The notes beneath the pieces are model-generated. The model was given only the letters and a program-made list of their open reading frames with translations, searched no databases and had not been told where the DNA came from. Position numbers and translations under genes: made by a program. Source: a virus. Taken from it: a stretch of 64,000 bases of DNA. The stretch is from IMG/VR virus record IMGVR_UViG_3300045988_180880, positions 288,001 through 352,000 of that record; one strand, written 5' to 3'. Position 1 is the first letter of the stretch. Each line of letters begins with the position of its first letter. Below, in pieces: positions 2,367-49,057 of this stretch.

Positions 2367-2951
2367 ATGTATATTAGACGTAAAGTATTCTCATTACTAC
2401 AAGATGAGACAGGAGAAGAGAGATACTTCTCTACTACTGATGTAACACTGGAAAATGAGGAAGAGAGAACCTTTAGTGTTGCAGAAGATGCAGAAAGTTT
2501 GGAAGAAAAGGATTTCTCTGATAAAAAAAAAGAGGAAGATGATGAGCCAAAACTTACAACTAGTGATAAGATTAATATTAAGTTGAATAAAGCTCTGATT
2601 ACTAAGAAGGATCGCGAAGCATTTGTTGAAGCTTATGAAGATGGAAAATCTCATAAATACGGAAAACAGGCAGCTAAGTATGCAGCAATTGGTAATGGTA
2701 TAGGTGGCGGTATATTAGGTGCTGCAGTTGGTGGTAAAAAGGGTGCAGCTATTGGAGCCGGAATTGGCGCTGTTTCAGGTGCAGCAGGATCTTATGCTGG
2801 TACTAGAGCAGGTGTTGCACTTAATAAGCTTGCTAGAAAACATAGTGGTAGTCTTGATACTAAAACAAAATTAGCAGTAGATCGAGTAAAAGTAGCAGAT
2901 GGAAAAATGACAAAAGAAGAATTTGCTAAAAAATGGAGATCTAAGAAGTAA
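2367..2951 (+). CDS. Leader-tagged (MYIRRKVFS) protein with glycine-zipper segment
   Basis: Leader plus internal xFS sites (RYFS, RTFS, KDFS). Gly/Ala-rich stretch IGNGIGGGILGAAVGGKKGAAIGAGIGAVSGAAG. Confidence 0.6.
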   Translation: MYIRRKVFSLLQDETGEERYFSTTDVTLENEEERTFSVAEDAESLEEKDFSDKKKEEDDEPKLTTSDKINIKLNKALITKKDREAFVEAYEDGKSHKYGKQAAKYAAIGNGIGGGILGAAVGGKKGAAIGAGIGAVSGAAGSYAGTRAGVALNKLARKHSGSLDTKTKLAVDRVKVADGKMTKEEFAKKWRSKK

Positions 2952-4192: not shown

Positions 4193-4266
4193 GCCTCTTT
4201 AGCTCAGTTGGCCAGAGCACGTGATTTGTAATCTCGGGGTCGTTGGTTCGAATCCGACAAGAGGCT
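4193..4266 (+). tRNA. tRNA-Thr: tRNA-Thr (anticodon TGT)
   Basis: Hand-folded cloverleaf: acceptor GCCTCTT/AAGAGGC, D arm GCTC/GAGC, anticodon loop TTTGTAA, T arm GTTGG-TTCGAAT-CCGAC. Confidence 0.85.
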
Positions 4267-4277
4267 CAAAAATAATA

Positions 4278-4350
4278 TTCTCCGTTAGCTCAGAGGCAGA
4301 GCATTTGACTGTTAATCAAAGGGTCGGTATATCGTAATTACCACGGAGAG
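4278..4350 (+). tRNA. tRNA-Asn: tRNA-Asn (anticodon GTT), atypical T arm
   Basis: Acceptor TCTCCGT/ACGGAGA is perfect; D arm GCTC/GAGC; anticodon stem TTTGA/TCAAA with loop CTGTTAA. The T arm (GGTA-TATCGTAAT-TACC) lacks the canonical TTCGAAT. Confidence 0.55.
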
Positions 4351-4358
4351 CTGTTTTA

Positions 4359-4443
4359 GGAGAGGTGGCAGAGTGGTCGATTGCGGCGGTCTTGAAAACC
4401 GTTGTACTGCGAGGTACCCGGGGTTCGAATCCCTGTCTCTCCG
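4359..4443 (+). tRNA. tRNA-Ser: tRNA-Ser (anticodon TGA), class II
   Basis: Acceptor GGAGAGG/TCTCTCC, anticodon loop CTTGAAA, long variable arm, T arm CGGGG-TTCGAAT-CCCTG. Confidence 0.85.
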
Positions 4444-4488
4444 CAATAATTTTAAAGATAAGAAAAATTATAAAAAAAACAATTAATT

Positions 4489-5273
4489 ATGGGAAAAGAG
4501 AAATATAACAAAGAAGAATTAATAAGATTATTAATTCATGAAGGAAAATCTTATAAAGAAGTTGCAGCTATGCGGGGTGATGGAAGCACTGGAGAAGCTA
4601 TACGTAAAGCAGCAAATAGATACGGGATAAAAGTATCAGATAGAAAGAAACTAAGAAAATGTGAATATTGTGGTAAAGAGCATGATGGTTCTTTTGGTTC
4701 TGGAAGATTTTGTTGTTCAGATTGTGCAAAGAAATATTCACTTAGTTTCAGCAAAGGTAAAAAACCAGAAGATAAATCTACTAAAGAAGAAAAAGTAGAA
4801 GAGTCTGTAAAGATAGCTCCTCCTAAGGAATGTACCACTGAATTGTCTAGATTTGATGGAAAATTAACTTCAGATTTATTAGGATATGTAGGTGAATGTG
4901 CGACAATGTTTCAATTAGCAAGAGTTGGAATTATGTCATCTAAACCTTGTGGAGTAGATAGATATGATGTAATTGCAGATATAGGAGGAATACTTTATAA
5001 AATTCAGGTTAAATCTACTGCTGGCTATATTGATAAAGATGGAGCATTATCGTACAATCTTCAAAATAAATCTGGATTATATAAAAAGGTGAAGTAGATT
5101 TCTTTGCCTTGTATAATTATGTACTTGATATTATACTATTAGTTCCCTTTAGTATACTTGAAGGTAAATATAAGGTGCGTATTCATTTTGGAAAAGAAAA
5201 AGATGAATCAGATTTATTCTTTTGGAAAGATTATATTTTATTTGATGTAGCGAAATCTTTATTATCCAGTTAA
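4489..5273 (+). CDS. PD-(D/E)xK (I-Ssp6803I-like) homing-endonuclease-like protein; needs a -1 shift at T_AAA_AAG (5082-5088)
   Basis: ORF-track 4489..5097 has a Cys-rich Zn motif (CEYCGK..CCSDC) and [18 protein letters not shown]. The -1 frame continues from 5088 for 61 more codons ([11 protein letters not shown]..), ending at 5271-5273. Sits among tRNA genes. Confidence 0.5.
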
Positions 5274-5286
5274 TTAATAATAAGTT

Positions 5287-5368
5287 TGTGTGATACTCAA
5301 GTGGTTAACGAGGATAGACTGTAAATCTATTAGCTTTGCTTTCGGGAGTTCGAATCTCTCTCACACAA
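5287..5368 (+). tRNA. tRNA-Tyr: tRNA-Tyr (anticodon GTA), class II
   Basis: Acceptor TGTGTGA/TCACACA, anticodon stem ATAGA/TCTAT with loop CTGTAAA, long variable arm, T arm GGGAG-TTCGAAT-CTCTC. Confidence 0.8.
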
Positions 5369-5388: not shown

Positions 5389-6372
5389 ATGAAAGTAAAA
5401 AGATTTAGTAAATTAGATACTCTACAAGATTCTATAAAAATTGTAAGTAAGAAAACAGGAGAATCTCTCACAATAAATAGATTTAAATCTTTTGTAGATA
5501 TTCTTGGAAAATTTATTAAGAGACTTAGAGAATGGAGTAATAAGAGACCGTCATTTGATATTTACTTAGGTTCTGAGAAAGTAGCAGAATTAAATCTTAT
5601 AGAAAAGTCCAAAGAAGAATTAAATATAATGTGGATTGAAACTTATGAAGATTATAGAGGTAAAGGATATTCTCAGGCTATTCTAACAGAGTTGATTAGA
5701 TTTGCTAAGTCTCAAGGTTATAAATATGTTACTCTTGAAGTGCCTGGTAGATCTCCTGATGCTAGACATATTTATGAGAAGCTTGGATTTAAGGATGATG
5801 GAGTCTTGACAACCCCAGAAGAAGATTTTTATTGGGGAGGTCTTACTAGAATGAAACTTAAATTGTTTGCAAATATTACTAATGTAACAAGTTTAACTCC
5901 ATTGAAAAATATAATAACAACTACTACTAGAAAAGCTACCGGACTATCTAATTCTAAAATAGCAACACAAGCAAAGAATGCAGCATTAGATTTACACTCT
6001 GTAACTAAAGATGCTCAAAATTCTTTTATATCTCCTAATGGTAATGGATATGTAACTAAAAGTTATTTTACTAAAAGACGTCCTAAAGGAAAGAAAGTTG
6101 AGTTTGTAGGAGATTTATTTGGGAATCCTAATCAATTACAGAAACCGAAAGTTATTAATAGCAGCAGTAGTAATAAAGGAGGAAATTCTTCAATTAGTAG
6201 TTTAGATGCTAAAAGAATGAATTTAAAACGGTATAATTCTCATAAAACAAGATCTTTGGAAGTAACACCTACTGCACCTGGACAAAATGAGTGGGTTAAA
6301 CGTGTAAAAACTAATGGACAAGCTAGGTGGGAAAATAATGGGTTATATATTCCTGGTTTTGAGAAATTATAA
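5389..6372 (+). CDS. Leader-tagged (MKVKRFS) GNAT-family acetyltransferase with basic C-terminal extension
   Basis: GNAT acetyl-CoA motif A-like sequence YEDYRGKGYSQAILTELIRFAKSQGYKYVTLEV..ARHIYEKLGF. Confidence 0.6.
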   Translation: MKVKRFSKLDTLQDSIKIVSKKTGESLTINRFKSFVDILGKFIKRLREWSNKRPSFDIYLGSEKVAELNLIEKSKEELNIMWIETYEDYRGKGYSQAILTELIRFAKSQGYKYVTLEVPGRSPDARHIYEKLGFKDDGVLTTPEEDFYWGGLTRMKLKLFANITNVTSLTPLKNIITTTTRKATGLSNSKIATQAKNAALDLHSVTKDAQNSFISPNGNGYVTKSYFTKRRPKGKKVEFVGDLFGNPNQLQKPKVINSSSSNKGGNSSISSLDAKRMNLKRYNSHKTRSLEVTPTAPGQNEWVKRVKTNGQARWENNGLYIPGFEKL

Positions 6373-6956: not shown

Positions 6957-7167
6957 AATGTAGTATAAAAAGTTGCCCTCCATATTAAGAAATTATATGG
7001 TAATAAAGTAAGTAAATTCGGTGAAAGGATAATCCCAATACCGAGTCAAGGATCTTAGATAAATCTAAGTAATCTTTGATGTAACGAATAAAGACTTACT
7101 AACTTATATAATTATATAAGTTAAATTTATATTCTAAACTATAATAGAGTATTATAGAAATAGATTG
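6957..7167 (+). ncRNA. Group I intron, family B (B2)
   Basis: P3 GTAAGT/ACTTAC, P AAATTCGGTGAAA, Q AATACCGAG, P8 AACTTATATA/TATATAAGTT. 3' tail TTCTAAACTATAATAG..GATTG|, as in B1. Joins ..SGPRG|AGGLGTDLIF. Confidence 0.7.
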
Positions 7168-8490
7168 GCAGGTGGACTAGGAACTGACTTGATTTTTGCA
7201 ATCATGTCTGAGGTCAATTTTTGGCCTAACGAAGAAAAAGCCATGGAACGTGTAAATAGTACGTATATTCGTATTACATCTCGTTTTGATGTAAAAGAAA
7301 GTTTAACATTAGCCGGAAATCTAATAATTGATAGTTCTAGTAGAGGTGCAGGTGGTCCAACTGAAATATTTCTTGAGAATGCAGAACCTCAATTTACTTG
7401 GGATTGTAGACCTTCTCATTATGAAGTTAGAAAAAATCTGTACGAACGTTCAAGGGGAATAACTTTCTCAGTTTATACTGGAGATGGTAAATATCCTCCA
7501 AGAATATTAAATAAAAATGATAAAGAAGAGAACTATAAATTAGAAGATGATCAAGACCCTGATAGAGTGGAACATGTACCTATTCAATTATTTGGAGAAT
7601 TTAAATCTGATTTGATTAAAGCTCTTCAAGATAAATCTGGTATTAATACAGGATCATCAGATAGTTTTTTTGGAGGTACTATAGAACACTTATCTAAATG
7701 TTCAACAATAAAGAATAGAATTCCTGAAATTATTACAGTTGATTTTTATGATAAAGAAGATAGGATTATTAATCATGTAGAAAAAATGATTAATCTTATT
7801 CCAAAAGGTACTCCTATATGGCTAGGTCTTGACTTAGGTGTAGTAGATGATACAACTGGAATAGCAGCAGTTAGTTTTGATCATTGGGAAAATATAAATG
7901 GTACTTTAGTTCCTAAGGTTAAATGTCATTTTGTTTTAGGTGTATCTAGGTTAGAAGGACAAGAGACGAGTTTATTTCACATAGAGCAGTTTATAGAAGA
8001 TCTTAACAAGAAATTTAATATTATAGTTAGTGCTGACCAAGCTTTTTCTAAACAAATACTTCAATATTGTGAAAGAGAAGGAATTAGAAATAATGGGAGA
8101 ATTTCTACAGATAATACTCCTTGTGAACCGGCTCTTTATTTGAAGTATATAATAAACAATGAACTTCTTGAAATTCCTGAATATAAAAGATTACAAAGAG
8201 AGGCATATGATTTAAGATATGTTGGTCCAAAACGTAAAGTAGATCATCCTAAAAAAGCATCAATATCTCCATTATTTGATAATCCTGATGGTTCTAAGCC
8301 AGGAAGCAAGGATTTATGGGATGCTTTAGCTTCTAGTGTTTATTCTTTAAAATTATCTATTGATGAAGGAGAAGAGATGGGATATTCTTCAGGAATAGCT
8401 AAACAACTCGAATCTCTTACTAAAATAACAGCGGATCCAAGAGAAGAGTCACAAAAAGAACTTCAAAACATGTTGGAAAATATATTTTAA
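7168..8490 (+). CDS. terL: Terminase large subunit, exon 2 (Walker B region and nuclease domain)
   Basis: GTDLIFAIMSEV (Walker B-like). RNase-H-like nuclease motifs GLDLGVVDDTTGIAAV, SADQAF, KVDHP..SKDLWDA. The track's TTG 'start' at 7165 is intronic. Confidence 0.8.
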   Translation, partial: AGGLGTDLIFAIMSEVNFWPNEEKAMERVNSTYIRITSRFDVKESLTLAGNLIIDSSSRGAGGPTEIFLENAEPQFTWDCRPSHYEVRKNLYERSRGITFSVYTGDGKYPPRILNKNDKEENYKLEDDQDPDRVEHVPIQLFGEFKSDLIKALQDKSGINTGSSDSFFGGTIEHLSKCSTIKNRIPEIITVDFYDKEDRIINHVEKMINLIPKGTPIWLGLDLGVVDDTTGIAAVSFDHWENINGTLVPKVKCHFVLGVSRLEGQETSLFHIEQFIEDLNKKFNIIVSADQAFSKQILQYCEREGIRNNGRISTDNTPCEPALYLKYIINNELLEIPEYKRLQREAYDLRYVGPKRKVDHPKKASISPLFDNPDGSKPGSKDLWDALASSVYSLKLSIDEGEEMGYSSGIAKQLESLTKITADPREESQKELQNMLENIF

Positions 8491-8849: not shown

Positions 8850-9218
8850 ATGATAATACTACGAAAACAAAAATATAAAGAACTTCCCTGGACCAAAGAA
8901 AATATAGAAAAATATAAGTCACAGGAGAATATGTTAAAGCACGCAAGAAATACACCAGGAAAAACGGCTGGAAAATTATTAATAAACCCAGCCAAAGATG
9001 AGTTGGTGGGATATATAGCGTGCGAAGAAGATACTATTATTGCTCTAGAAGTTTCTCCGGGGTATAGAGGAAAAGGAATAGCAACTGATTTGATAAATTC
9101 TTCTGGGGCTAATAAACTTACAGTATCAAAGAAAAATATAAATGCGATAAATTTATATAAGAAACTTGGATTTGAAATTATATCAGAAACTCCAAAAATA
9201 TATTTTATGGAGAAATGA
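8850..9218 (+). CDS. Leader-like (MIILRKQKY) small GNAT acetyltransferase
   Basis: VSPGYRGKGIATDLI...INLYKKLGFEII matches the GNAT motif A/B pattern. Confidence 0.6.
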   Translation: MIILRKQKYKELPWTKENIEKYKSQENMLKHARNTPGKTAGKLLINPAKDELVGYIACEEDTIIALEVSPGYRGKGIATDLINSSGANKLTVSKKNINAINLYKKLGFEIISETPKIYFMEK

Positions 9219-9219
9219 T

Positions 9220-9291
9220 TGAACTATAGTATAATTGGCAATACACCAGATTTTGGTTCTGGGATTTCCTGTTCGAGTCAGGATAGTTCAA
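9220..9291 (+). tRNA. tRNA-Gln: tRNA-Gln (anticodon TTG)
   Basis: Acceptor TGAACTA/TAGTTCA, D stem GTAT/ATAC, anticodon stem CCAGA/TCTGG with loop TTTTGGT, T arm TCCTG-TTCGAGT-CAGGA. Confidence 0.8.
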
Positions 9292-9322: not shown

Positions 9323-9640
9323 ATGTTGAGAGTTAAAAGATTTAGTAAAGTTACTGATAAAGTTAAAGAAATAGGAAAATCTATTGAACATACAGTAACT
9401 CATCCTAAAGAAACTGGTAAGAAGGTGGTGGAGTATGTAAAGAAACACCCAGATGAAGCTATAATTCTTGGGACATCTGATATTGTTCCTGGAGTTGTTG
9501 CTGCCAAACTTGCAAAAGCTGGAAAAACAAAACAAGCAGCTATCGCAGGAACTATTGCAGCACTTCCTATTGGTGGTGCATATGTATCAGGGAAAATAGC
9601 TATTCGAAAATGGAATGAAAAAAGAAAGAAGAATAAATAG
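9323..9640 (+). CDS. Leader-tagged (MLRVKRFS) small protein with Gly/Ala-rich hydrophobic segment
   Basis: ORF track; sequence GVVAAKLAKAGKTKQAAIAGTIAALPIGGAYVSG. Confidence 0.55.
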   Translation: MLRVKRFSKVTDKVKEIGKSIEHTVTHPKETGKKVVEYVKKHPDEAIILGTSDIVPGVVAAKLAKAGKTKQAAIAGTIAALPIGGAYVSGKIAIRKWNEKRKKNK

Positions 9641-9648
9641 AATAGATT

Positions 9649-9721
9649 CGAGATGTAGTTCAGTAGATAGAACGCTTGGTTTGGGACCAAGAAGTCGCAC
9701 GTTTGAGCCGTGTCATCTCGA
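9649..9721 (+). tRNA. tRNA-Pro: tRNA-Pro (anticodon TGG)
   Basis: Acceptor CGAGATG/CATCTCG, D stem GTTC/GAAC, anticodon stem CTTGG/CCAAG with loop TTTGGGA, T arm GCACG-TTTGAGC-CGTGT. Confidence 0.8.
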
Positions 9722-9878: not shown

Positions 9879-11327
9879 ATGATAGATACTAAATTATTAC
9901 CAGTACCTTTAGAGTATTCTTGTCCAATAGTAATGAGAGTAAAACTTCCCAGAAGAAATGATAGTGGGAGATTAAACTATTATACGTATGTTCCAGAATT
10001 AGGTACTTGGGTATTAGAAAAGATGAGAAATTCAGTTTTTAAGAAATTACAAAAATTAAATATAACTTTTAGGGACTGGGAAAATAGATGGTTACTTAAA
10101 TTACAACCATCTGATATGTATTCAGAACTTTGGGTAGATAAAATAATAGAAGTTTATTATAAAGATAAATTACCAAATACAAAAAGTTATATAAAAGATC
10201 AATTATTGTTAGATAATGATTATGTATTTACGGGTGTTATGGTTAAAGAGGATTTAATGGATATATTTATTAAATCTCGGGAGGGTAGTTTTATAGACAT
10301 AGTATATAATTATGATTTAGTACCTAAAATAATCGAAAAACTTACAGATGAAATATGTTTACAGTATTTAAATGATAATAATGAATATGAAAAATACTAT
10401 ACTACGTATTCAGATTTTATTTCAAGAGGGCTAAATTGTAGGTATTATGCTGCTAAACTTAGAAAAATAACGCTTAGTAATAAAGAATATCATTCGAGTA
10501 GATTAAAGACAACAGAAGCTTATATTACAGAATCAAAAGCTAAGTTTGGAGAAAATTCCTTTGAATATTTATCTGAATATACTGGAAGAATTGATAAAAT
10601 GACTTTTAAATGTAATAAGTGCGGAACAACTTTTTCGGTTTTAGCAAAAACACATTTAGAAAGTTCTCATGGTGGGTGTCCAGTTTGTAATACTAATTCT
10701 ATAAAAGAAGATAGAAAGTTTTCTAATCAAGACTTTCAAAATAGGTTGGATAATATTTATGGAATTGGAAAGTATAAGTTAATATCTAACTTTATCAATT
10801 GCAAGACTACTGTGGAAATTTTAGATCTTGAAACAAATACTATATTTAAACAAGATCCAGAGAATTTATTATATCATGGACTTACAGATCCTAGTACTGT
10901 TACTAAATCAAAGGGAGAACGATTAGTAGAGCTTTGGATTAATAAAAATTCAGATAAAATATTGGATTATAAGTGGAATACTAAAGTAAGTGGAATAGAG
11001 GGCAGGTGTAGAGATTATGTTATGATTGATTTTATTATTAACTATGGTGGGAAAACCATATGGATTGAATATAATGGAATTCAGCATTATACATATTTTT
11101 CACTATATCACAAATATGATAAAAATCTTTTTGATGACCAAAAAAGAAGAGATGAAAATGTAAGAATTTATTGCAAACAGAATAATATAATGTTGGTAGA
11201 AATTCCTTACACTATAAGTTCTTTTAAAAGAGTTTCTGAATTTTTAAATAAAGTAGTTTTTGAAAATATTGATCCAAGTACTTTAGTAGATTATAATCTT
11301 TTATATGAAACTACAAAAGGAAAATAA
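9879..11327 (+). CDS. Free-standing homing-endonuclease-like protein (Zn-ribbons plus Vsr/DUF559-like PD-(D/E)xK C-domain), paralog 1
   Basis: CNKCGTTF..GGCPVCN, and C-terminus DFIINYGGKTIWIEYNGIQHY..DDQKRRDENVRIYCKQNNIMLVEIPY. Paralogous to 26877 and 39120. Ends 20 nt before the 3-intron protease gene. Confidence 0.6.
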   Translation: MIDTKLLPVPLEYSCPIVMRVKLPRRNDSGRLNYYTYVPELGTWVLEKMRNSVFKKLQKLNITFRDWENRWLLKLQPSDMYSELWVDKIIEVYYKDKLPNTKSYIKDQLLLDNDYVFTGVMVKEDLMDIFIKSREGSFIDIVYNYDLVPKIIEKLTDEICLQYLNDNNEYEKYYTTYSDFISRGLNCRYYAAKLRKITLSNKEYHSSRLKTTEAYITESKAKFGENSFEYLSEYTGRIDKMTFKCNKCGTTFSVLAKTHLESSHGGCPVCNTNSIKEDRKFSNQDFQNRLDNIYGIGKYKLISNFINCKTTVEILDLETNTIFKQDPENLLYHGLTDPSTVTKSKGERLVELWINKNSDKILDYKWNTKVSGIEGRCRDYVMIDFIINYGGKTIWIEYNGIQHYTYFSLYHKYDKNLFDDQKRRDENVRIYCKQNNIMLVEIPYTISSFKRVSEFLNKVVFENIDPSTLVDYNLLYETTKGK

Positions 11328-11347: not shown

Positions 11348-11569
11348 ATGAAATTTATTGCAAAATTGTTTTCGACAATGCTACCTGCATCTGACAGTAG
11401 TATGATACCTCGAGATGTTGCGGAATCTTTCTTTAGTAGCCAAGAGTTTAAACAAGCCTTAGAGGATAGAAAGCTCTTTGGAACATTAACACACTTAGCC
11501 AGAAATCTATCATCTGCCAAAAATGGTGGTCCTGCAGTATCTAAGACTATAGGGAAAGATGATCTCCTT
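11348..11569 (+). CDS. T4 gp21-like prohead protease, exon 1
   Basis: Begins MKFIAKLFS (leader-like). FGTLTHL aligns with T4 gp21 LGELNHP (catalytic His). Donor CTCCTT| (CCUU pairs with GAGG, directly before P2). Alternative donor at 11576. Confidence 0.55.
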
Positions 11570-11760
11570 TATTGCTAATAATGAGAGGCATAGATAAAAA
11601 GTTTATGAAAATGTTTTTAATTGCTGGAAAAAATAATAAATTAAATCAGCAAAAATAGATAATAAAATCTATTTCTCAACGACTAGAGTAAACACTAAGA
11701 ATACCGATTAATTCTTAGATAATATAGTCTATTATTGATTTTAAAATCAATTAGGTTAAG
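11570..11760 (+). ncRNA. Group I intron, family A (A3)
   Basis: P2 CATAGA/TTTATG, P AATTGCTGGAAA, Q AAATCAGCA, P6 ATAGAT/ATCTAT, R TTCTCAACGACTA, S AATATAGTCT. 3' end at G11760; alternative G11770. Confidence 0.7.
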
Positions 11761-11949
11761 TTATTAATTGGCGAAAGTTCACCTACACATGTGTTAACTA
11801 AAGTTTGGTTCGAAAATGACGGCTGGTGCTATGGGGAGTTTGAGGTTCTCTCCGAAGATGGCCTAGACGATGAAGCTATACAAAGAATCAGAAGAGTAAA
11901 GGGCCTTCTTAAAAATGGTTGCAAAATTGGAATTTCCTGTGTCGTTCTT
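11761..11949 (+). CDS. gp21-like prohead protease, exon 2
   Basis: THVLTKVWFENDGWCYGEFEVLSE and KIGISCVVL align with gp21 IIIEDMWWKGNDVYGRARVIEG and GVSSRGLG (catalytic Ser). Not in the ORF track (no ATG). Confidence 0.6.
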
Positions 11950-12132
11950 TAATTAACTGAGACTTAAGAAATTCATAAGTTCTTAAGAAAATTTCATAAA
12001 ATGCTGGAAAGGTTAGAATCAAATCAGCATCATCTAGCAGATAGCGAGATGTTCAACGACTAAAGATGGAACCTAGATTTTTAGGATAATATAGTCTAAA
12101 TTTAATAGCAAGCAATATATTAAAAAAAATTG
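11950..12132 (+). ncRNA. Group I intron, family A (A4)
   Basis: P1 TCUU/GAGA, P2 CTTAAGAA/TTCTTAAG, P AAATGCTGGAAA, Q AATCAGCA, R GTTCAACGACTA, S AATATAGTCT. G12132 is the only in-phase G; tail ends AATTG|. Confidence 0.8.
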
Positions 12133-12756
12133 GGATATTGGGAAAATTCTAGCGGAAGTGACTATTTAAAGCGTATGGTTGCGCTAAAAGGGGCTGACCT
12201 TACATTAAACCCTTCTTGGAAAAATGCGGGTATAGTTTCAATTGATGGTTCTGAGAGCGAAAAAACATTCTCTGAACTTGATATAGAGTATGATCCTGAA
12301 GCTTATAAGGATACAAAAATAAAAGTTAAGCAATTTTCTAACTTCGATTCGGGAGATTTATTAAAGTCTTCTAAGATTAATGGAAAGTTTACGCAATTAA
12401 AAGCTAAATCATTTTCATTTAATTCTGAAATAAATTCAATAGAAGATACTATCGTTAGTGAATCTGTAATAGAAGAACCTATTCAAAAAGATTTCTCAGT
12501 TGCTACAGTTAAAGAGAGAGTTAGAATTGGAAAGATGTCCCCTCGCCAAAGATTTCGTCTACTTGTTTTAGAATATAAGCAAGCAGTAAAACAAGCTGGT
12601 GGTTCTGAAAAGATGGATCCAGAAACACTTAAAATCATGAAGTCTTTGTTTACTACAGATCTTTTGGATATTATGAAGTCGATTACACCAGAAATCATGA
12701 ATGGAAAAAATCCAGGAACATTACTTGGTGCTTCTAGTTTAGGTAAGAATGTACGT
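12133..12756 (+). CDS. gp21-like prohead protease, exon 3 (plus scaffold-like extension)
   Basis: GYWENSS..KGADLTLNPSWKNAGIV aligns with gp21 GVDAVWGPSAPDAWV. Internal xFS sites (KTFS, KQFS, KSFS, KDFS). Donor GTACGT| (ACGU pairs with GCGU). Confidence 0.6.
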
Positions 12757-12930
12757 AAATAATATGCGTTTTTTATATGAATTGCTGGAAATATCTAAAT
12801 GAGATAAATCAGCATCAAATCATACTTAGATAAATCTAAAGAAGTGATTTGTTCAACGACTATGTATATAAACTGTCAAAATAGACAGAAGATATAGTCT
12901 AAATTATAAATAAATTTTATAAATACATTG
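12757..12930 (+). ncRNA. Group I intron, family A (A5)
   Basis: P AATTGCTGGAAA, Q AAATCAGCA, R GTTCAACGACTA, S GATATAGTCT (12891-12900). Tail ends CATTG|, P10 TAT/ATA. Phase 0 on both sides. Confidence 0.8.
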
Positions 12931-13137
12931 ATAAGTGTACAAAAATTGTTCTTACCATATAAGATGGCTATGTCTGAGGTATCTAAAACTAATGCAATAT
13001 CTAAGGCAAGATATCAAAAAATTCAAGCTGCTTATTCTGACTTTGTTAATGCAATGTTAGAGGAAATATTCGCGCCAAAGAATGGTACGAAGAAAGAAGA
13101 GCCAGTAGAAGAAGAAAACCCTGAAGAAAACAGTTAA
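12931..13137 (+). CDS. gp21-like prohead protease, exon 4 (C-terminus)
   Basis: ISVQKLFLPYKMAMSEV...EENPEENS*. The track's TTG start at 12928 is intronic. Confidence 0.55.
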   Translation: MSVQKLFLPYKMAMSEVSKTNAISKARYQKIQAAYSDFVNAMLEEIFAPKNGTKKEEPVEEENPEENS

Positions 13138-13143
13138 AAGATT

Positions 13144-14037
13144 ATGAAAGTAGAAAGACGTAAATTATTCTCTTCTTCGATTTCTCCACGGCGCAAGTTA
13201 TTTTCAGGTGGAGTAACTCAGGCAGAATATAAGAAAATTCAGTGTAGAGATTGTGGTTATATTATGGATACTTTAGCCACTACAACTAACTTCTTATGTC
13301 CTAAATGTGGAGCTGTAAATAGATTTAATGTTTTAGAAGTTACACCAAGTCCTGAAAATACTCCTGAAGCTGTACAAGTCGAAGTATCAAAAATTGAAGA
13401 AGTAGAAAAAGGATTCTCAAGACGTTCGTTATTCGGCGGAGATAATAATGCCGCTGTACAAAAAGAATTTTCAGAACCGTCGAACGAATTTGAGGTAAAA
13501 TTAAAAGAATTTTCTGGCAAAACTTTAAATGAATCAGAAGTTGTTAAGGCATTTGGTATTTCCGCCGAAGATTTAGTTGAAAAAGGTTTTGCTAGTATTG
13601 ATGAAGATAATAAAGTTACTATTCCTGAAACTGCATTCTTACAATCTAAATTATTCTCTAAGTTAATCGTATCAGTGACTAAGATTTTGGATTTAGACCC
13701 AATAGAAGGACCTAAGGAAGACATAATTAATATGTTAGAATCTAAAGGATCTTTAGGACCGAAAGGTATAATGCTAATTAAAAAAGCTCATTCTCTTCCA
13801 CTTGAAGAAATGAAAGAAGTTGAGTTCTCTAGCACTGAAGAAGTAGAGGATTGGATTAAAGATTCTGGAATTATTGGAGACTTAAAGATAGAGTTTGGTA
13901 ATTCTGCAATGGGAATTAAAGAATTTACAAAGATCCTAGAAGAGAGATATGATGATGCTCCAGATAATATAATAGATATATTAATTGATCGTGGAGTAAT
14001 CAAAATTCAAGGAAATCAAGTTGATATAATGAAATAA
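13144..14037 (+). CDS. Leader-tagged (MKVERRKLFS) head-assembly/scaffold-like protein with Zn-ribbon
   Basis: Seven xFS sites (RRKLFS twice, KGFS, KEFS twice, KLFS, VEFS). CRDCG..CPKCG. Lies between the protease and the acidic protein. Confidence 0.5.
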   Translation: MKVERRKLFSSSISPRRKLFSGGVTQAEYKKIQCRDCGYIMDTLATTTNFLCPKCGAVNRFNVLEVTPSPENTPEAVQVEVSKIEEVEKGFSRRSLFGGDNNAAVQKEFSEPSNEFEVKLKEFSGKTLNESEVVKAFGISAEDLVEKGFASIDEDNKVTIPETAFLQSKLFSKLIVSVTKILDLDPIEGPKEDIINMLESKGSLGPKGIMLIKKAHSLPLEEMKEVEFSSTEEVEDWIKDSGIIGDLKIEFGNSAMGIKEFTKILEERYDDAPDNIIDILIDRGVIKIQGNQVDIMK

Positions 14038-14056
14038 AATATTTATAAAACTCAGT

Positions 14057-16414
14057 ATGAAAAATACAAGATTTATGGAAGTCCTATTCTCAGCTGTAGA
14101 GGATAAGGATGAAGAATTAGCAAAGCAAGTAGCCAAAGATATTGAAGATGCTAAGGCTAATGGCTCTGTTGATACTGAAGAAGTAAAATATGAAAATATC
14201 GGTGACGGTAAAGTTTCAGTAACAGACAAAGAAAATGGCGAAGTTACTATCGTTGAAAAGGCTTCCGATGAGGACGATACTTATGATATGTATCCAGCTG
14301 AACAATCTGAACAAATCGAGGGATATCTTCATCCGGAAGGGGATGGAGTAACTCCGGGTAATCAGGTAGGTGCAGTTGACGAGGAAGTTGAAAGTCATAT
14401 GGATGGTAGTGCTGTTATTGCACCGAATCTTCCTGATGGTGGTTTAAATCCAGCAGCTGGTCATGAAGAAAGTGTAGAAATTACTGCACAAGAAGGTCCT
14501 GAAGCTGTAGAAGAATGCGAAGAAAAAGAATTCTCTGTAAGTACTGATAATAGCGTAGTTCTTAGAATTTTCTCAGATCAAGAATTTTGTGAAAGATTAT
14601 TCTCAGAAGTTATTGAATCAGAAGAAACAGCTAAAGTAGGTGATCTTAAAGTAGAGAAAACTGGTGAAAATGAAGTAGTTGTTACATCAGAATCTACAGG
14701 TGATCAAGCAAAGGTAGAGTTTAATGGTGAAGATATGGATGTTACTGAGCTAGAATCTAAGAATTTTAGTGAAGCAGAACAGTTTGATCCGTTGTTTGTA
14801 GTAGGAGTAGATCCAGTAAATCATGTTATTGTAGATGCTCCAGAGTATGACGAAGCATCAGCTCAAGAATTAGTTCAGAGTTTAACAGAAAAAGGAGTAG
14901 CAGGAGTTAGAATTTTTGATAACCCCGAAGACGCTCGTGAATATGCTATCGATCTCTTGAATGGTCTTGGTGTAGTTGAAGATGAACAACTTGGAGAACC
15001 TGAACAAGCAGAATTTTCAGATCATACTATTTACTTAACTGAATTCCAAGCTGATAATACAGACTTTATGTGTCGTTTCTTCTCTGAATCTGTAGATAGT
15101 ATTAGTGCAACTCAGGATGCTATTGAAGATGCTATTGAAAATGGTGATGAGATTGAAACAGATTCTGAAGTTATTACACCTATCGATTCTAAGACTGCAG
15201 TTATACAGGATAAAAATAAAGATGAATTTACTAAAGTTAGTTTAGAAGGTGAAGAAATGGAGCTTGAAAAGATAAGCGAAGATCAAGCAGAAGAGTTGAC
15301 AGATCATATCGTTGTTTCTGAAGAAGAGGAAGACGAAGATGAGGAAGAAGAAAAAGAATTCTCTGATGTTTGGTGTGACGAAGCAGAAACTAAATTTTTC
15401 TCAGAAAATGAAGAACTTACTCAGTATATGATTCGTTTGTTCTCTGAAGAGGCTGATTCTGCTGAAATTGAAAGCGCAATCCAAACTGGCGAACAAGTAG
15501 AAACAGATAAAGAAATTATTACGCCTATCGATTCTAAGACTGCAGTTATACAGGATAAAGAAAATGGCGAATTTACTAAAGCTGAGATGGATGAAGAAGT
15601 TCTTGATGTTAATCCTATCTCAGAAGCAGAAGCCGATAATCTAACAAACAGTATTGCAGTAGAAGATAAAGTTGAAAATCATGAAGAAAAAGAATTTTCT
15701 GAAGATATCTACTGTAATGAGGCAGAAACTAAATTCTTCTCTGAAGGTGAGGAATTTACTGAATATATGGTTCGTCTATTCTCTGAAGAAGATGGTCATT
15801 GTCCAGTAGAAAAAGCTATTGAAACTGGTAAGAAAGTAGAAACAGATAAAGAAATCATTACTCCAATTTCAGCTACAGAAGCAATTATAGAAGATAAGGA
15901 AAATGGTGAATTTACTAAGGCTACTATGAGTGAAGATGATATTGAATGTCATCCATTATCAGAAGAAGAAGCTGACAAACTTGAAGAACATTCTATTGAT
16001 AAAGAAGAAAAGAAATTCTCAGGAGATTATGAAGATCCTATTCTTAATAAATTCTTCTCAGATGTTGTAGGTGCAGTTCCTGTTCCTGCTGGAGAAGTAG
16101 ATCCTAATACTCCTGTAATTCCTTTAGCTGATCCTAATGCTGTAGCTCCTCAGGAAGTAGCAGTTCCGGCAGGTGTTGCTCCTGCACAAGGTGGTGCTAC
16201 TAGTGTTGAAGCTATTGAAGATAAAGCACTTCAGGCAGTTCAAAGTATCCAAGCAGTAGCAGAAGAAGCAGCTCAGCAAATTATGGAAGCAAAACAAGCT
16301 CCTGCACAGGCTCAAGAACAAGATCTTCAGGAAGCTCAGTTCTCAGAAAAGAAATTCAGTGATACAAATGATACTCTAGTATCATGGTTGACTGGAAATA
16401 GTTTTCGTAAGTAA
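14057..16414 (+). CDS. Highly acidic repeat protein, scaffold/internal-core polyprotein candidate
   Basis: 785 aa, D/E-rich, 17 FS dipeptides (EKEFS, TKFFS, xRLFS...). Three ~110-aa tandem repeats. Immediately upstream of the capsid gene. Confidence 0.5.
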   Translation: MKNTRFMEVLFSAVEDKDEELAKQVAKDIEDAKANGSVDTEEVKYENIGDGKVSVTDKENGEVTIVEKASDEDDTYDMYPAEQSEQIEGYLHPEGDGVTPGNQVGAVDEEVESHMDGSAVIAPNLPDGGLNPAAGHEESVEITAQEGPEAVEECEEKEFSVSTDNSVVLRIFSDQEFCERLFSEVIESEETAKVGDLKVEKTGENEVVVTSESTGDQAKVEFNGEDMDVTELESKNFSEAEQFDPLFVVGVDPVNHVIVDAPEYDEASAQELVQSLTEKGVAGVRIFDNPEDAREYAIDLLNGLGVVEDEQLGEPEQAEFSDHTIYLTEFQADNTDFMCRFFSESVDSISATQDAIEDAIENGDEIETDSEVITPIDSKTAVIQDKNKDEFTKVSLEGEEMELEKISEDQAEELTDHIVVSEEEEDEDEEEEKEFSDVWCDEAETKFFSENEELTQYMIRLFSEEADSAEIESAIQTGEQVETDKEIITPIDSKTAVIQDKENGEFTKAEMDEEVLDVNPISEAEADNLTNSIAVEDKVENHEEKEFSEDIYCNEAETKFFSEGEEFTEYMVRLFSEEDGHCPVEKAIETGKKVETDKEIITPISATEAIIEDKENGEFTKATMSEDDIECHPLSEEEADKLEEHSIDKEEKKFSGDYEDPILNKFFSDVVGAVPVPAGEVDPNTPVIPLADPNAVAPQEVAVPAGVAPAQGGATSVEAIEDKALQAVQSIQAVAEEAAQQIMEAKQAPAQAQEQDLQEAQFSEKKFSDTNDTLVSWLTGNSFRK
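15060..16030 (+). repeat. Three tandem ~330-nt coding repeats inside the acidic protein gene
   Basis: Repeated unit ..AETKFFSE.EE.T.YM.RLFSEE...VETDKEIITPIDSKTAVIQDKENGEFTKA...EEKEFS. The DNA is nearly identical over GATTCTAAGACTGCAGTTATACAGGATAAA. Confidence 0.75.
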
Positions 16415-16496
16415 TTAAATATAAATAGATAGGTTTATGGTTATCCTCAAAAACCATTTTACATAAACTAAAAATAATAAAAACATTATATATATT

Positions 16497-17945
16497 ATGA
16501 ATACACAGTATTTGCAAATGATGCAGACTCCTTCAATGATGGAGGCTCTTATTAATAGCTCAGTATCAGCAGAAGATGCTAACCTTCGTTCTCGTGAATA
16601 TGCTAAGATGTTCTCTCGTAACGATGAAATGAAAGATTTGTTTGGTCTAGGTAATGCAGGTAATTTGCTGCAGAAGACTTTCTCTGGTTATGCAGAAACT
16701 CCGTTGCTGTCTACTCAGTATTTCAATGCTTCTGTAGCTTCTTATGTAAGCTCATTCGCAGGTTATATGTCTATCGAACGTGACTTTGATCAGCCTAATG
16801 GTTTGTTCTATTGGTTCGACGTTTTGGGTGTAACTGATATGCGTTCTGTTATTCCTAACTTAGGTCCGGATAACTATCAGGATATTCAAGCTATGGGTAA
16901 CTTTACTTTGAATATTACTCCGACTACTAATGCTGACTACTCTTCTTTGATTGGTCGTAAGATTATCCCTGGTACAGTACGTGTTAAGATTGCTACTGCA
17001 ACTGAAAAATTCGAATTGATCGATAATGGTCAGGGTGCTTTCATGGCTGTTGCTGGTAAGATTTCTAACGGTACTATCAACTATTTGAATGGTCGTGTAG
17101 AATTTACTTTGGCTACTGCTTTGGCTGGTGATGCTGCTACTGAATCAATCACTATTGTAGGTAAGGAAGATGTTACTGGTACTCCTTGTAATACTATTGG
17201 TGCTTCTAATGCACATGCTAATGATAAGAGATTTATCGCTAAGATGCAACAGCTTGGTTTGGCTACTGTACCTGATATGTTGGTAGCTGAATATAACATT
17301 GCTGCTTTAGGTGCTATGAAGAAAGCAACTGGTTCTGATATGGCTACTTTCTTGTTCACTAAGCTTCGTGAATTGTATACTAAGGTAATTAACTATAAAT
17401 TGGTTTCTACTTTGGAAGAAGGTTATAATGGTAACGTTATGGCTGACTTGGATTTGACTCAGGGTGCTATGACTGGTCAGTTCATGGATTATCGTTCTAG
17501 AGTTGACTTGTTCGATGCTTACTTGATTAATGTTGAAAGTGCATTGGCAACTAAAGCTGTTAAGGGTGTTGATGTTACTGCCTATGTAGCTGGTAATATG
17601 GCATCTAATCAATTCCAGAAGGGTGGAATGATTGGTAAATGGGAACGTAATACTAAGATGACTTATATCAATGACCTGTTGGGTTGGTATAATGGTATTC
17701 CTGTACTTCGTTCTACTGATATTGCTGAAGCTCCGGGTGAAGGTACTTTCTATGCAATTCACAAAACAAAAGATGGTCAGATGGCTCCGCTTGCACGTGG
17801 TATCTATATGCCTTTGACTGATACTCCGACTATTGGTAACTACAATAACCCAACTCAGATGGCTTCTGGTATCTACTATCAGGAAGGTACTAAGTATATG
17901 GCTCCTGAATTGGTACAGAAGGTTACTTTCAAATTCGGTATCTAA
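16497..17945 (+). CDS. Major capsid protein (candidate)
   Basis: 482 aa, directly after the protease/scaffold genes. Codon usage shifts sharply to CGT/GGT/GCT/CTG/ACT. A strong terminator follows. xFS sites at aa 39-40 and 62-63 resemble prohead-protease cleavage of a delta-domain. Confidence 0.6.
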   Translation: MNTQYLQMMQTPSMMEALINSSVSAEDANLRSREYAKMFSRNDEMKDLFGLGNAGNLLQKTFSGYAETPLLSTQYFNASVASYVSSFAGYMSIERDFDQPNGLFYWFDVLGVTDMRSVIPNLGPDNYQDIQAMGNFTLNITPTTNADYSSLIGRKIIPGTVRVKIATATEKFELIDNGQGAFMAVAGKISNGTINYLNGRVEFTLATALAGDAATESITIVGKEDVTGTPCNTIGASNAHANDKRFIAKMQQLGLATVPDMLVAEYNIAALGAMKKATGSDMATFLFTKLRELYTKVINYKLVSTLEEGYNGNVMADLDLTQGAMTGQFMDYRSRVDLFDAYLINVESALATKAVKGVDVTAYVAGNMASNQFQKGGMIGKWERNTKMTYINDLLGWYNGIPVLRSTDIAEAPGEGTFYAIHKTKDGQMAPLARGIYMPLTDTPTIGNYNNPTQMASGIYYQEGTKYMAPELVQKVTFKFGI

Positions 17946-18074: not shown

Positions 18075-18440
18075 ATGGCAAGTACATTTAGATTAAAGAG
18101 AAAATTATATTCTGATGATAAAGGCGGAATGAGTACTGGGAAAAAATTAGCTTTAGGTGGCCTCGCAGCAGGTGCAGCCATTCTTGGGGCTAAAAAAGGT
18201 GCATTTGGTGCTAACATAATGGCTAAAACTAATACTGGACTAATGAAAGCTGGTAAAGCTGTTGGAGGAAAAGTTGGAGATAGAATGATGATGTCTGGAG
18301 CTAAGGATTTTGGAGTTGCACGAGCTAAACAAATTGATAATGCACTTTTAAAGAAAACAGGATCTCAGATGACAAAACAAGCTTTTAATGCAAAAGCTGA
18401 TCAAAAAGGTATGCAGGCACTTGGAAAAATTATGAAATAA
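18075..18440 (+). CDS. Leader-tagged (MASTFRLKRKLYS) Gly/Ala-rich small protein
   Basis: In-frame ATG at 18075 inside ORF-track 18000..18440. The upstream part overlaps the terminator hairpin. Confidence 0.55.
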   Translation: MASTFRLKRKLYSDDKGGMSTGKKLALGGLAAGAAILGAKKGAFGANIMAKTNTGLMKAGKAVGGKVGDRMMMSGAKDFGVARAKQIDNALLKKTGSQMTKQAFNAKADQKGMQALGKIMK

Positions 18441-18442
18441 TT

Positions 18443-18691
18443 ATGGCAACTTATAAGCTTAAAAGAAAAAATTTTGGATTATTTTCTCCATTCGCCAAAA
18501 CAGCGGCAAATTGGACTGCAGCAAAAGGAGCTTTTAAAGCAGGAGAAAATGCCAAAGGTTTTAAGAATTTAGCTTCTACTGTGGGAAGAGGCACTATTGG
18601 AATAGGTAAAGGATTAGGTGTTGCTGCCGCCGGAACTGCTGCATTAGGTGCTGGTACATTTTTAGCAGCAGAAAATAAAGCTAATAGTTAA
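18443..18691 (+). CDS. Leader-tagged (MATYKLKRKNFGLFS) Gly/Ala-rich small protein
   Basis: ORF track; sequence GIGKGLGVAAAGTAALGAGTFLAA. Confidence 0.55.
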   Translation: MATYKLKRKNFGLFSPFAKTAANWTAAKGAFKAGENAKGFKNLASTVGRGTIGIGKGLGVAAAGTAALGAGTFLAAENKANS

Positions 18692-22918: not shown

Positions 22919-23872
22919 ATGGCAAAATTTAAACCAAAGAAAATAATCAGAGATGTAAAGGAGTTTTATAAAAATAATCCTACGGCAAAAATTACTACTG
23001 CCACTGCTGGATTTTCTGGAACTAATCTTGCTATTAATGCTACTAGAAAAAATTCTGATAAAAAATATCAAGAAGAACAACTAGAAGCAATGGATAAATT
23101 AACTAAAGCACTTGGAGGAGTTAATAAAACTTTAAAAGAGGTAGAAGTAAAAGAACCAAAAAAGACAACCTCTTATAAATTTAAAAAAATCTTTTCCGAG
23201 AGAAATGATAATAATATGATTACATTTAGAAGAAAAGACTTTAGTATATTATCTGATACTGTTAAAGGAGCTATAATTGGTGGAAACGTAGCTACCCTAA
23301 GTTTACCATTATCCGGAAAAGATGCTAAAAATATTAAATATGAAGGGAGTAATCCTACTTTCCGAAAATTAAATGCTCTAAGTCCATTTGCTAAACGACT
23401 TGGAGTAGTAGCCGCCGGAACATTAGTCGGAGCAGCTCTTGGAGCCTTAGTTGGTACTATAAAAAAAGGTGATGAGGCTATTTCCAGAAAGTTAACAGTT
23501 GACAATAGATTAATGGATAGAGTAGTAGAGGATCTTAAGAAAACAGGTTTTAAAGAAGGCTCCGATTTTACAAGAGATCCTAAAACGGCGGATTCTCTTA
23601 AATCAGCAATAAGTGTAGCTATAACAAGAAATTCTGGTGAACTTAGACTTCTAGTAAATACAATAGCAGATAATAAACTAAAAGATATAACAAAAAACAT
23701 AATACGAAATCTACCAAACTCAAGTGCAGTAACAGAAGAAAGTAAAAGTAGATATAATGAGATTTCTATAACTACTATATCTGATGGAACCGCTGATGTT
23801 GGTTTAATAGCTGGAATATGTGAAAAATTTATAAGAAATAAATATCCAGTATATCTCGTAGAAGTTGGTTAA
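22919..23872 (+). CDS. Protein with N-terminal MAKFKPKK and a second internal leader (KKIFS..MITFRRKDFS at nt 23216)
   Basis: ATG at 22919 is preferred over the track start 22862, which overlaps the upstream gene. Confidence 0.5.
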   Translation: MAKFKPKKIIRDVKEFYKNNPTAKITTATAGFSGTNLAINATRKNSDKKYQEEQLEAMDKLTKALGGVNKTLKEVEVKEPKKTTSYKFKKIFSERNDNNMITFRRKDFSILSDTVKGAIIGGNVATLSLPLSGKDAKNIKYEGSNPTFRKLNALSPFAKRLGVVAAGTLVGAALGALVGTIKKGDEAISRKLTVDNRLMDRVVEDLKKTGFKEGSDFTRDPKTADSLKSAISVAITRNSGELRLLVNTIADNKLKDITKNIIRNLPNSSAVTEESKSRYNEISITTISDGTADVGLIAGICEKFIRNKYPVYLVEVG

Positions 23873-48112: not shown

Positions 48113-49057
48113 ATGATAATAAAAAGAAAATTATTCTCTAAGAAATTAACAGCCGAAGAGAGAAAACAGAGAGCTGCAGATCAGATTGATAAAACTCGTA
48201 AAGGAGTATCTACTGCGCATGGAATTTTAGCTGGTGGTACTGTAGCTGGGGTAGGTCTTTTAGGTTCTGATATTGCCAGAAATGAAGCTATGTATAAAGT
48301 AACTAAACAAACTAATAAACATGTAGATAAAATTAGCGAAAATTATGGTAATAAACTAGATAAGATAAGAAATACTGGAGATAAAGTTCGAGAATTGGCT
48401 AAGAAGAGATTGAAGAAAACTGGAAATCCTATAAAAGATCTTGCTAATGAACTTGATATTGATAGAAAGGTTGATTATGTCGAAAATGTCTATAAAACAG
48501 GAGCTGGAGAAGAATATAATGCTAAAATCGAAACTCTTAAAAAAGCTTCTAATAGATTAAAGGATAGAATTTCAAAGAAAGCTTCAAAGAGAAATAAGAA
48601 GATCTTGGTAGGAGCAGCTTTATTAGGAACAGCGGCGGGATTAGCTTCAAACCATTCAATGAAGAAACGTGCAGAAAAACTTAGAGAGAATAAATTTTCT
48701 AAGGCTGATAATGATTTAGATGAAGAAACATATCTTGGGATGTCAGAAGAATTTGATGATTCTAAATTCTCTCGAAAGTCAGATAAATGGCTTAAAGAAA
48801 GAGCTAGATATAATGAAGGTTTGACTGATAGAGAGAAAAAGAATATAAAGAAGACTGCTGCTAAAGCGATGATAGGTTTAGGTGTGACAGGAGCTTCAAT
48901 TGGATTAGCTAAGAAATTATCTTTAAAAAGAGGTTTAATAGGAGCTGGAATCGGTGCTGCTACAGGTGCCGGAATTGCTGCAGCTGCACATCTTCATCAT
49001 AAATCAGAAGCAAGAAAGGCTCGTAAAGAATTAGAGCGTAGAGAAAAAGAAGATTAA
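48113..49057 (+). CDS. Leader-tagged (MIIKRKLFS) coiled-coil protein with Gly/Ala-rich hydrophobic segments
   Basis: ORF track, 314 aa; contains ILAGGTVAGVGLLG and GLIGAGIGAATGAGIAAAA. Confidence 0.55.
   Translation: MIIKRKLFSKKLTAEERKQRAADQIDKTRKGVSTAHGILAGGTVAGVGLLGSDIARNEAMYKVTKQTNKHVDKISENYGNKLDKIRNTGDKVRELAKKRLKKTGNPIKDLANELDIDRKVDYVENVYKTGAGEEYNAKIETLKKASNRLKDRISKKASKRNKKILVGAALLGTAAGLASNHSMKKRAEKLRENKFSKADNDLDEETYLGMSEEFDDSKFSRKSDKWLKERARYNEGLTDREKKNIKKTAAKAMIGLGVTGASIGLAKKLSLKRGLIGAGIGAATGAGIAAAAHLHHKSEARKARKELERREKED

Follow-up and report, generated by a model that had tools for sequence, protein, structure and literature searches.

Here, we analyze a window of 64,000 nt, which is the whole stretch of DNA considered (positions 288,001 to 352,000 of the IMG/VR virus record IMGVR_UViG_3300045988_180880), and identify a short motif, [KR]-x-[FY]-S, that recurs in the proteins of its head-morphogenesis module. 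Coordinates are positions within the window; where Table 1 gives a strand, it is the + strand, which carries nearly all genes of this DNA (guanine plus cytosine [GC] content ∼31%). The module encodes, in this order, a homing endonuclease, a protease whose gene is in four pieces, a 297-amino acid (aa) protein, a 785-aa protein and the 482-aa major capsid protein. The 785-aa protein is acidic (isoelectric point 4.05; 27% Asp+Glu), is encoded between the protease and the capsid genes and contains three to four internal repeats of ∼110 residues each, with three Phe-Ser (FS) dipeptides per repeat. It has no Pfam or PHROG match and no detected homology to T4 gp22, to which it would be analogous in function only. 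The 297-aa protein has weak matches to zinc-ribbon families of Pfam, and its CxxC...CxxC zinc ribbon (residues 33-57; 13240-13314) is conserved in the ortholog from a related lineage (L001, below). Gene order, composition and motif content make both proteins candidate scaffold-like proteins.

The protease gene could be reconstructed from uninterrupted homologs of 405 to 440 aa, which span all four open reading frame (ORF) pieces; their alignment fixes the exons, giving a 413-aa product, and the intron-less homologs confirm the splice junctions. Each of the three inserts (11570-11760, 11950-12132 and 12757-12930; 174 to 191 nt) is preceded by an exon-terminal T and has G as its last nucleotide. 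They have common conserved cores (TGCTGGAAA, AATCAGCA, TCAACGACTA and ATATAGTCTA), and their matches to the Rfam group I intron family RF00028 are subthreshold (E = 0.15, 1.3e-3 and 9e-5, in the order of the inserts). They are group I-like introns, and such introns have already been reported for Jug phages. The free-standing homing endonuclease gene lies directly upstream of this intron-rich gene. The Jug (jumbo gut) phages of Bacteroides and Phocaeicola are described as having genomes of 360 to 402 kb with a GC content of ∼30%; their essential genes contain group I introns of ∼200 nt, the prohead protease is fragmented, and the capsid protein is highly conserved (PMC12880540). Set against this description, the DNA analyzed here has ∼30% GC, group I-like inserts of ∼180 to 190 nt and a protease gene in pieces. 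Moreover, capsid proteins identical or 80 to 92% identical to the one encoded here are present on metagenomic contigs of 330 to 400 kb. In these features, the window is consistent with a jumbo gut phage of the Jug type.

FS occurs 17 times in the 785-aa protein and seven times in the 297-aa protein, compared to 2.3 and 1.35 copies expected from composition; six times in the spliced protease (two copies in exon 1 and four in exon 3); and twice in the capsid protein, at residues 39-40 (AKMFS) and 62-63 (QKTFS, followed by GYAETP). These counts exactly reproduce the 17 and seven copies listed in an initial annotation of the window, and they bear out its statements that FS is found several times in the C-terminal extension of the protease and at these two capsid positions. 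The initial annotation had written the motif as (K/R/E)-x-F-S followed by acidic residues. The first part of this description can be sharpened: Lys or Arg is two residues ahead of Phe at 33 of the 39 FS sites, which makes [KR]-x-[FY]-S the more accurate form of the motif. The second part does not hold: Asp or Glu follows the Ser at only 18 of the 39 sites. The acidic residue is outside the motif and reflects the acidity of the 785-aa protein. The motif is also present beyond 11348-16685, the interval to which the initial annotation had assigned it.

We tested the enrichment of [KR]x[FY]S by 20,000 sequence shuffles per protein. The motif was found 14 times in the 785-aa protein (shuffled mean 0.22), six times in the 297-aa protein (0.22), five times in the spliced protease (0.44) and four times in a 194-aa protein encoded outside the module (0.14), i.e., 11- to 67-fold over the shuffled mean (p ≤ 1e-4 for each). 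For the whole capsid protein, two copies were observed and 0.20 expected (p = 0.017); within its first 80 residues, p was 0.0017. In an unbiased scan of the scaffold-like proteins, no dipeptide scored higher than FS (z = 12.4), and no gapped pair higher than K-x-F (z = 9.0). The motif Ser residues are encoded by codons of both the TCN and AGT families and the Phe residues by both TTT and TTC. These mixed synonymous codons indicate that selection acts on the protein level, and they rule out a nucleotide-level explanation of the N-terminal leaders described below.

As the initial annotation had noted, the repeated motif is F-S rather than the (L/I)-x-E of T4: neither the T4-type [LI]xE nor the phiKZ-type [AGS]xE motif is enriched in any candidate substrate here (ratios 0.5 to 1.8), a test of motif statistics that bears on cleavage indirectly. 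For calibration, the validated T4 motif [LI]xE occurs 16 times in gp22, compared to 5.7 copies expected, which is only 2.8-fold; [KR]x[FY]S is wholly absent from the T4 head proteins checked. A T4-like register F-S-E, with Phe at P3 and Glu at P1 (residues counted from the scissile bond as P1, P2 and P3 toward the N terminus, and as P1′ toward the C terminus), was also considered and rejected. It has Asp or Glu at only 18 of the 39 sites, the capsid site reads FSG, and most leaders read FST, FSK or FSL.

The AlphaFold2 (AF2) model of the protease, built on 66 homologs, consists of a confident domain at residues 1-175 (predicted local distance difference test [pLDDT] ∼85 to 93), a linker at residues 184-258 with pLDDT mostly <50 and a helical region at residues 260-392. 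When the model was compared to the PDB using Foldseek, the sole matches with E ≤ 0.001 were chains A and B of T4 gp21 (5jbl; probability 1.0, target template modeling [TM] score 0.59), and no herpesvirus protease was among the matches listed. Structural matches in BFVD comprised Peptidase U9/T4 prohead protease together with protease-scaffold fusions of Tenacibaculum jumbo phages (e.g., pT24). By hhalign, the protease aligns with T4 gp21 (weakly, E = 0.01) such that FGTLTH49 falls on H85 and GIS133C on S140, in agreement with the correspondence around the catalytic His (FGTLTHL) and Ser (GISCVVLGY) proposed in the initial annotation. H49 and S133 are invariant in the 66 homologs; D159, which aligns to gp21 D169, is also invariant in the homologs. 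The model, then, assigns the protease domain to the T4 gp21 fold, with a catalytic His/Ser pair.

Four copies of the motif are in the disordered linker that joins this domain to the C-terminal helical domain. Among 24 aligned homologs (down to 44% identity), the sites KTFSE, VKQFS, AKSFS and QKDFS are kept in all and the N-terminal K-L-F-S in most; the spacers between the sites vary in sequence and length, and substitutions at the sites are from F to Y and, rarely, from S to T. Among the 66 homologs (47 to 87% identity), three linker residues are invariant (S184, F205 and S206), and another three (F183, F231 and S232) show conservation of at least 90%. Just before the third F-S site, residues 216-230 (12367-12411; KSSKI(N/D)GxFTxLKAK) are modeled as a beta hairpin within the otherwise disordered linker, and S216, S217, K218 and I219 of this segment are at least 90% conserved. 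The hairpin might be a docking or inhibitory element.

The capsid protein (AF2 model, pLDDT 85.7) matched by Foldseek the head of phage P1 (9ukm, E = 6e-19), Staphylococcus phage S6 (7x30), T4 gp23 and HK97. Residues 54-67 are the sole long low-confidence segment of the model; they separate the leader helices (residues 4-48) from the HK97-type core, which starts with the helix at residues 72-85. The motif K60-T-F62-S63 is in this segment. In an alignment of 84 family representatives with a mean identity of 21%, to which all column counts below refer, column 62 has F in 74 sequences (88%) and Y in six, column 63 has S in 63 and A in 13 (together 90%), and column 60 has K or R in 53. When the residue columns of the entire protein are ranked by conservation, that of F62 falls within the top ∼13. 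The second motif, K37-M-F-S40, is kept together with the first in all Jug-type homologs listed; in the wider family it is kept in only about a third (F in 30 of 84, S in 27 of 84). A Glu site at the boundary, Y-A-E67 followed by T, was examined as an alternative and rejected: column 67 is mixed (D in 29, E in 22), and no conserved Glu site exists at the leader/core boundary. The predicted leader of 62 residues compares to 65 residues in T4 gp23. Within this leader, R31 (16587-16589) is kept in 81 of the 84 sequences and is better conserved than most core residues, although predicted to be removed. This conservation suggests a specific leader contact in the course of assembly.

From one phage lineage to another, the scaffold motif varies along with the capsid site. 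In L001 (protease 47% identical), the capsid site is KSFS and the motif is enriched in four head proteins (4, 6, 14 and 2); the ortholog of the 785-aa protein has 886 aa and 14 sites, and that of the 297-aa protein has six sites, one of which is KKYS. In L006 (capsid protein 42% identical), the capsid site is KTFS and the upstream protein has eight sites of the R-R-[FY]-S type. By contrast, in L008 (capsid protein 24% identical), the capsid site is A-N-F-S-G, and the upstream protein contains 11 FS and six YS, mostly after N or D and not after K or R. Of two more distant lineages, L015 has K-M-F-A-E in the capsid protein and, in the upstream protein, K-x-F-S three times and K-x-F-A twice; L014 has F-F-A-S in the capsid protein and FS, YS and FA in the upstream protein. 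Judged from these sequences, the invariant core would be [FY]-[S/A], and the upstream preference would be specific to the lineage and common to the capsid site and the scaffold. This is the pattern expected of one enzyme reading both.

We infer that the gp21-fold protease of this phage probably recognizes [KR]-x-[FY]-[S/A] instead of (L/I)-x-Glu, most likely cutting the F↓S bond (arrow, scissile bond) with Lys or Arg at P3. In such a scheme, the protease would first free its catalytic domain of ∼175 residues from the C-terminal helical domain at the four linker sites (cut at F183). It would then cut the 785-aa acidic core protein as well as the 297-aa protein into small pieces, predicted to be of 10 to 159 residues for the 785-aa protein and of 9 to 159 for the two together. 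Next, the helical capsid leader of ∼62 residues would be removed at K60-T-F62↓S63 to give the mature N terminus SGYAETPLLSTQYFNASVASYVSSFAGYMSIER. Finally, a leader of 6 to 10 residues, M-x-x-[KR]-[KR]-x-F↓S, would be clipped from a set of small proteins. The changed prohead-protease specificity suggested in the initial annotation is, thus, supported by the enrichment, conservation, placement and covariation of the motif and by the protease fold; none of the computational tests run contradicts it.

Several observations weigh against this interpretation. The phages in question are uncultured, and neither proteomic nor biochemical data on them were found; the available part of PMC12880540 contains neither the word stem "proteom" nor a cleavage motif, and it reports no leader and no proteomics for Jug phages. 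No cultured relative was found by tblastn of the capsid protein, two distant capsid homologs and the protease against 50,697 phage records, and a scan of IMG/VR with P0253 for a cultured relative also returned none. No paper containing "Phe-Ser" was returned by a full-text search that combined this term with prohead or maturation protease. The protease has no Pfam family at E ≤ 0.01, and its link to gp21 consists of the fold and weak profile alignments (PHROG 207 "head maturation protease," E = 3e-4; hhalign, E = 0.01); searched against PDB sequences, the protease family profile gave chance matches only, so that the relation to gp21 is seen by fold and not by sequence models. Two copies of the motif are in ordered elements. 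The capsid K37-M-F-S40 is modeled inside the confident helix 25-48 and is not obviously accessible, and the N-terminal K-L-F-S of the protease is modeled as a confident core beta strand (residues 2-9, pLDDT ∼92; 11351-11374) and may not be a free substrate. Finally, the motif count of the 785-aa protein is partly inflated by the internal repeats, in which the copies are not independent. T4 gp21 has L-I-E at residues 7-9, the place equivalent to the K-L-F-S of the protease.

The strongest competing explanation retains the motif and the enzyme and differs in the bond. The initial annotation had placed the cut after the Ser, i.e., K-x-F-S↓x with P4 = K, P2 = F and P1 = S/A, in which case the mature capsid protein would start with GYAETPLL and not with SGYAETPLL. 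Herpesvirus assemblins, which have the fold in common with the protease described here, take a small P1 residue (Ala). In addition, position 63 tolerates S or A, and capsid column 64 is also small (G in 58, S in 13 and T in five of the 84 sequences). However, the characterized gp21-type enzymes use P3 and P1, leave P2 free and have Ser or Ala at P1′, a register that K-x-F↓S fits and K-x-F-S↓ does not. In addition, Phe/Tyr varies least of all positions, in line with a role as P1. Because T4, SPN3US and phage P1 sites read P3-x-P1 with Ser or Ala at P1′, and because of this invariance, we favor F↓S over a cut after Ser, which we regard as unlikely but as deserving serious consideration.

Considerably less likely is an alternative in which K-x-F-S is not cleaved at all but serves as a docking motif through which scaffold, cargo and capsid leader would be tethered to the inside of the shell, to the portal or to the protease, with the scaffold being removed elsewhere or never. 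The resemblance of the N-terminal leaders to targeting signals, the near-invariant R31 of the capsid leader, which points to a binding role, and the copies in the ordered strand 2-9 of the protease and helix 25-48 of the capsid protein would all be compatible with docking. On the other hand, 14 to 17 copies in an acidic protein, four in a protease linker and one at the leader/core boundary reproduce the layout of the cleavage sites in T4 gp21, gp22 and gp23; a gp21-fold protease with intact His and Ser is encoded next to them, and no other candidate motif is enriched. Moreover, targeting and cleavage are not mutually exclusive in T4.

It is also conceivable, but improbable, that a protease of the Bacteroides or Phocaeicola host reads the motif. 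A precedent is Staphylococcus phage 80alpha, the capsid and scaffold proteins of which are reportedly trimmed by the host protease Prp after Phe, at a motif shared with ribosomal protein L27. However, the phage analyzed here has its own conserved protease with copies of the motif in its own linker, similar to the self-processing T4 gp21; the motif context shifts between phage lineages in step with the scaffold; and the sequence lacks the Prp-type consensus LNLQFFA. That the FS excess is a functionless by-product of internal repeats or composition, as the three FS in each ∼110-residue repeat of the 785-aa protein might suggest, is hardly credible given that the enrichment extends to unrelated, nonrepetitive proteins (the protease linker, the 297-aa and 194-aa proteins and the leaders), that the motif survives in a capsid family with 21% mean identity and that its synonymous codons are mixed.

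Returning to cleavage at F↓S by the phage protease, its potential substrates extend beyond the head module. Among 60 + strand ORFs of at least 70 aa, 11 hold the motif in the first 12 residues, compared to 0.67 expected, and the leader-bearing proteins have the pattern M-[IKY]-[IV]-x-[KR]-[KR]-x-F-S in common (Table 1). L001 has the same kind of leaders. In the 194-aa protein, the leader is followed by three further sites within the acidic first 50 residues and then by a basic glycine-zipper domain. By analogy with the capsid-targeting sequence of T4, the leader M-x-x-[KR]-[KR]-x-F-S probably also acts as a head-targeting signal. Based on its leader and domain match, the GNAT acetyltransferase at 5389-6372 is a candidate for an enzyme that would be packaged in the head and delivered to the host.

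Table 1. Positions in the window of the head-module features, the predicted cleavage sites and the proteins carrying leaders or motif copies
Feature	Position	Strand	Remarks
Homing endonuclease, free-standing	9879-11327		PHROG 559 HNH endonuclease (E = 5.5e-28) and zinc ribbon
Protease exon 1 (residues 1-74)	11348-11569	+	K6-L-F-S9 motif and catalytic His49 (GTLTH)
Protease exon 2 (residues 75-137)	11761-11949	+	Catalytic Ser133 (GISCVV)
Protease exon 3 (residues 138-345)	12133-12756	+	End of catalytic domain, disordered linker, start of C-terminal helical domain
Four predicted self-processing sites in protease linker	12262-12498	+	K181-T-F-S, K203-Q-F-S, K229-S-F-S, K256-D-F-S
Protease exon 4 (residues 346-413)	12931-13137	+	End of C-terminal helical domain, then acidic tail
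297-aa protein	13144-14037	+	Leader MKVERRKLFS, Zn ribbon, six [KR]xFS (seven FS)
785-aa acidic repeat protein, candidate scaffolding core	14057-16414	+	17 FS, 14 [KR]xFS
Major capsid protein, 482 aa	16497-17945	+	HK97 fold with insertion domain
K37-M-F-S40 of capsid protein, second, weaker site	16605-16616	+	Inside leader helix; from model and homologs
K60-T-F62-S63 of capsid protein, predicted maturation site	16674-16685	+	Leader/core boundary
Leader MKIKRFS	2131	+	
Leader MYIRRKVFS	2367-2951	+	194-aa protein
Leader MKVKRFS	5389-6372	+	GNAT acetyltransferase (PF00583, E = 9e-9)
Leader MLRVKRFS	9323	+	
Leader MKFIAKLFS	11348	+	Protease
Leader MKVERRKLFS	13144-14037	+	297-aa protein
Related leader	18075	+	Start position
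Leader MIVKRFS	20953	+	
317-aa protein	22919-23872	+	KIFS and KDFS ahead of glycine-rich segment; weak alone (p = 0.02)
Related leader MIIKRKLYS	28920	+	
Leader MIVPRIRYFS	30568	+	
Leader MIIKRKLFS	48113-49057 and 50968	+	
Leader MRVLRQKVFS	52112	+	

A family of small basic proteins has glycine-zipper or Gly/Ala-rich hydrophobic segments behind the leader motif (2367-2951, 48113-49057, 50968-51897, 9323-9640 and 18075-18691); these might act on membranes as head or ejection proteins. The products of the genes at 48113 and 50968 both start with MIIKRKLFSKK, and the two genes look like paralogs. A second GNAT-like ORF (8850-9218) starts with MIILRK and lacks F-S. Elsewhere in the window, six tRNA genes were identified: four are within 4193-5368, and two (9220-9291 and 9649-9721) flank the small gene at 9323-9640. 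The ORF at 7165-8490 has weak matches only, to the terminase large subunit (PHROG 2699 and PHROG 9), and may be a piece of terL, a gene reported to be split in Jug phages.

To our knowledge, every characterized gp21-type phage protease cuts after Glu. It is quite possible, though we would stop short of calling it probable, that a large clade, none of it cultured, comprising the Jug phages and relatives with ∼20% identical capsid proteins has re-tuned a protease of the gp21/assemblin fold to an aromatic P1 residue, [FY]↓[S/A], with a lineage-specific P3, and that the leader is an address label for packaged and possibly injected cargo, which here would amount to at least 11 proteins including the GNAT and glycine-zipper membrane proteins. 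If so, the P1 specificity of this fold would be evolvable, and the head cargo of uncultured gut phages would be predictable from sequence alone. A readable motif would predict the mature N terminus of the capsid protein, delimit the active protease domain, indicate what becomes of the scaffold and single out the proteins that are probably packaged in the head and that may also reach Bacteroides cells. Covariation of capsid site and scaffold motif would also offer a general route to prohead-protease specificity in uncultured phages. With ∼1.1% of metagenome reads, Jug phages are reported to rank among the huge phages that are most abundant in the human gut (PMC12880540).

The module described here resembles that of T4 in several respects. 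The gene order of protease, acidic core protein and capsid protein is that of T4 genes 21, 22 and 23; the protease fold is shared, with aligned catalytic His and Ser; the capsid leader predicted here and that of T4 are of ∼62 to 65 residues; and the motif recurs throughout the acidic core protein. In T4 gp23, the established cut is L63-T64-E65↓A66. Short N-terminal leaders ending in the motif are present on small proteins, and the layout of the 194-aa protein recalls the T4 internal proteins and their capsid-targeting sequences. By contrast, the motif here is [KR]-x-[FY]-[S/A] and in T4 (L/I)-x-Glu; the protease here carries, behind a site-filled linker, ∼150 C-terminal residues that form a helical domain; the core protein is repetitive and exceeds gp22 three times in length; and no sequence homology is detectable by Pfam.

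The proteases of the giant phages phiKZ and SPN3US are likewise related to gp21, and they share with the specificity predicted here a three-residue P3-x-P1 motif in which Ser is favored at P1′. They differ in having Glu at P1 and a small residue at P3, where the motif here would have an aromatic and a basic residue, respectively. The motif of phiKZ gp175 is S/A/G-X-E, and in structure the capsid protein of this phage is only distantly similar to the one here. SPN3US gp245 cuts after A-X-E with Ser preferred at P1′, and the prohead proteases of giant phages cut many head and ejection proteins, mostly removing N-terminal propeptides, several of which contain multiple copies of the motif (PMC10052503). 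The head of phage P1 is the best structural match of the capsid protein; however, the Pro protease of phage P1 cuts after Glu. In phage P1 gp23, 120 residues are removed at AMLE↓SVAAEM, leaving Ser at the mature N terminus, and DarB carries an N-terminal capsid-targeting signal (PMC9024508).

The F↓S reading also has its P3-x-P1↓Ser register in common with the herpesvirus assemblins, in which P1 is Ala and P3 is hydrophobic, as opposed to Phe/Tyr and a basic residue here. The assemblins belong to the fold superfamily of gp21, have the consensus (V/L/I)-x-Ala↓Ser and release themselves from a scaffold-like C-terminal extension. Proteolytic head maturation of the T4 type is, thus, already known; what would be new, and is predicted here, is its re-tuned specificity in abundant uncultured phages of the gut.

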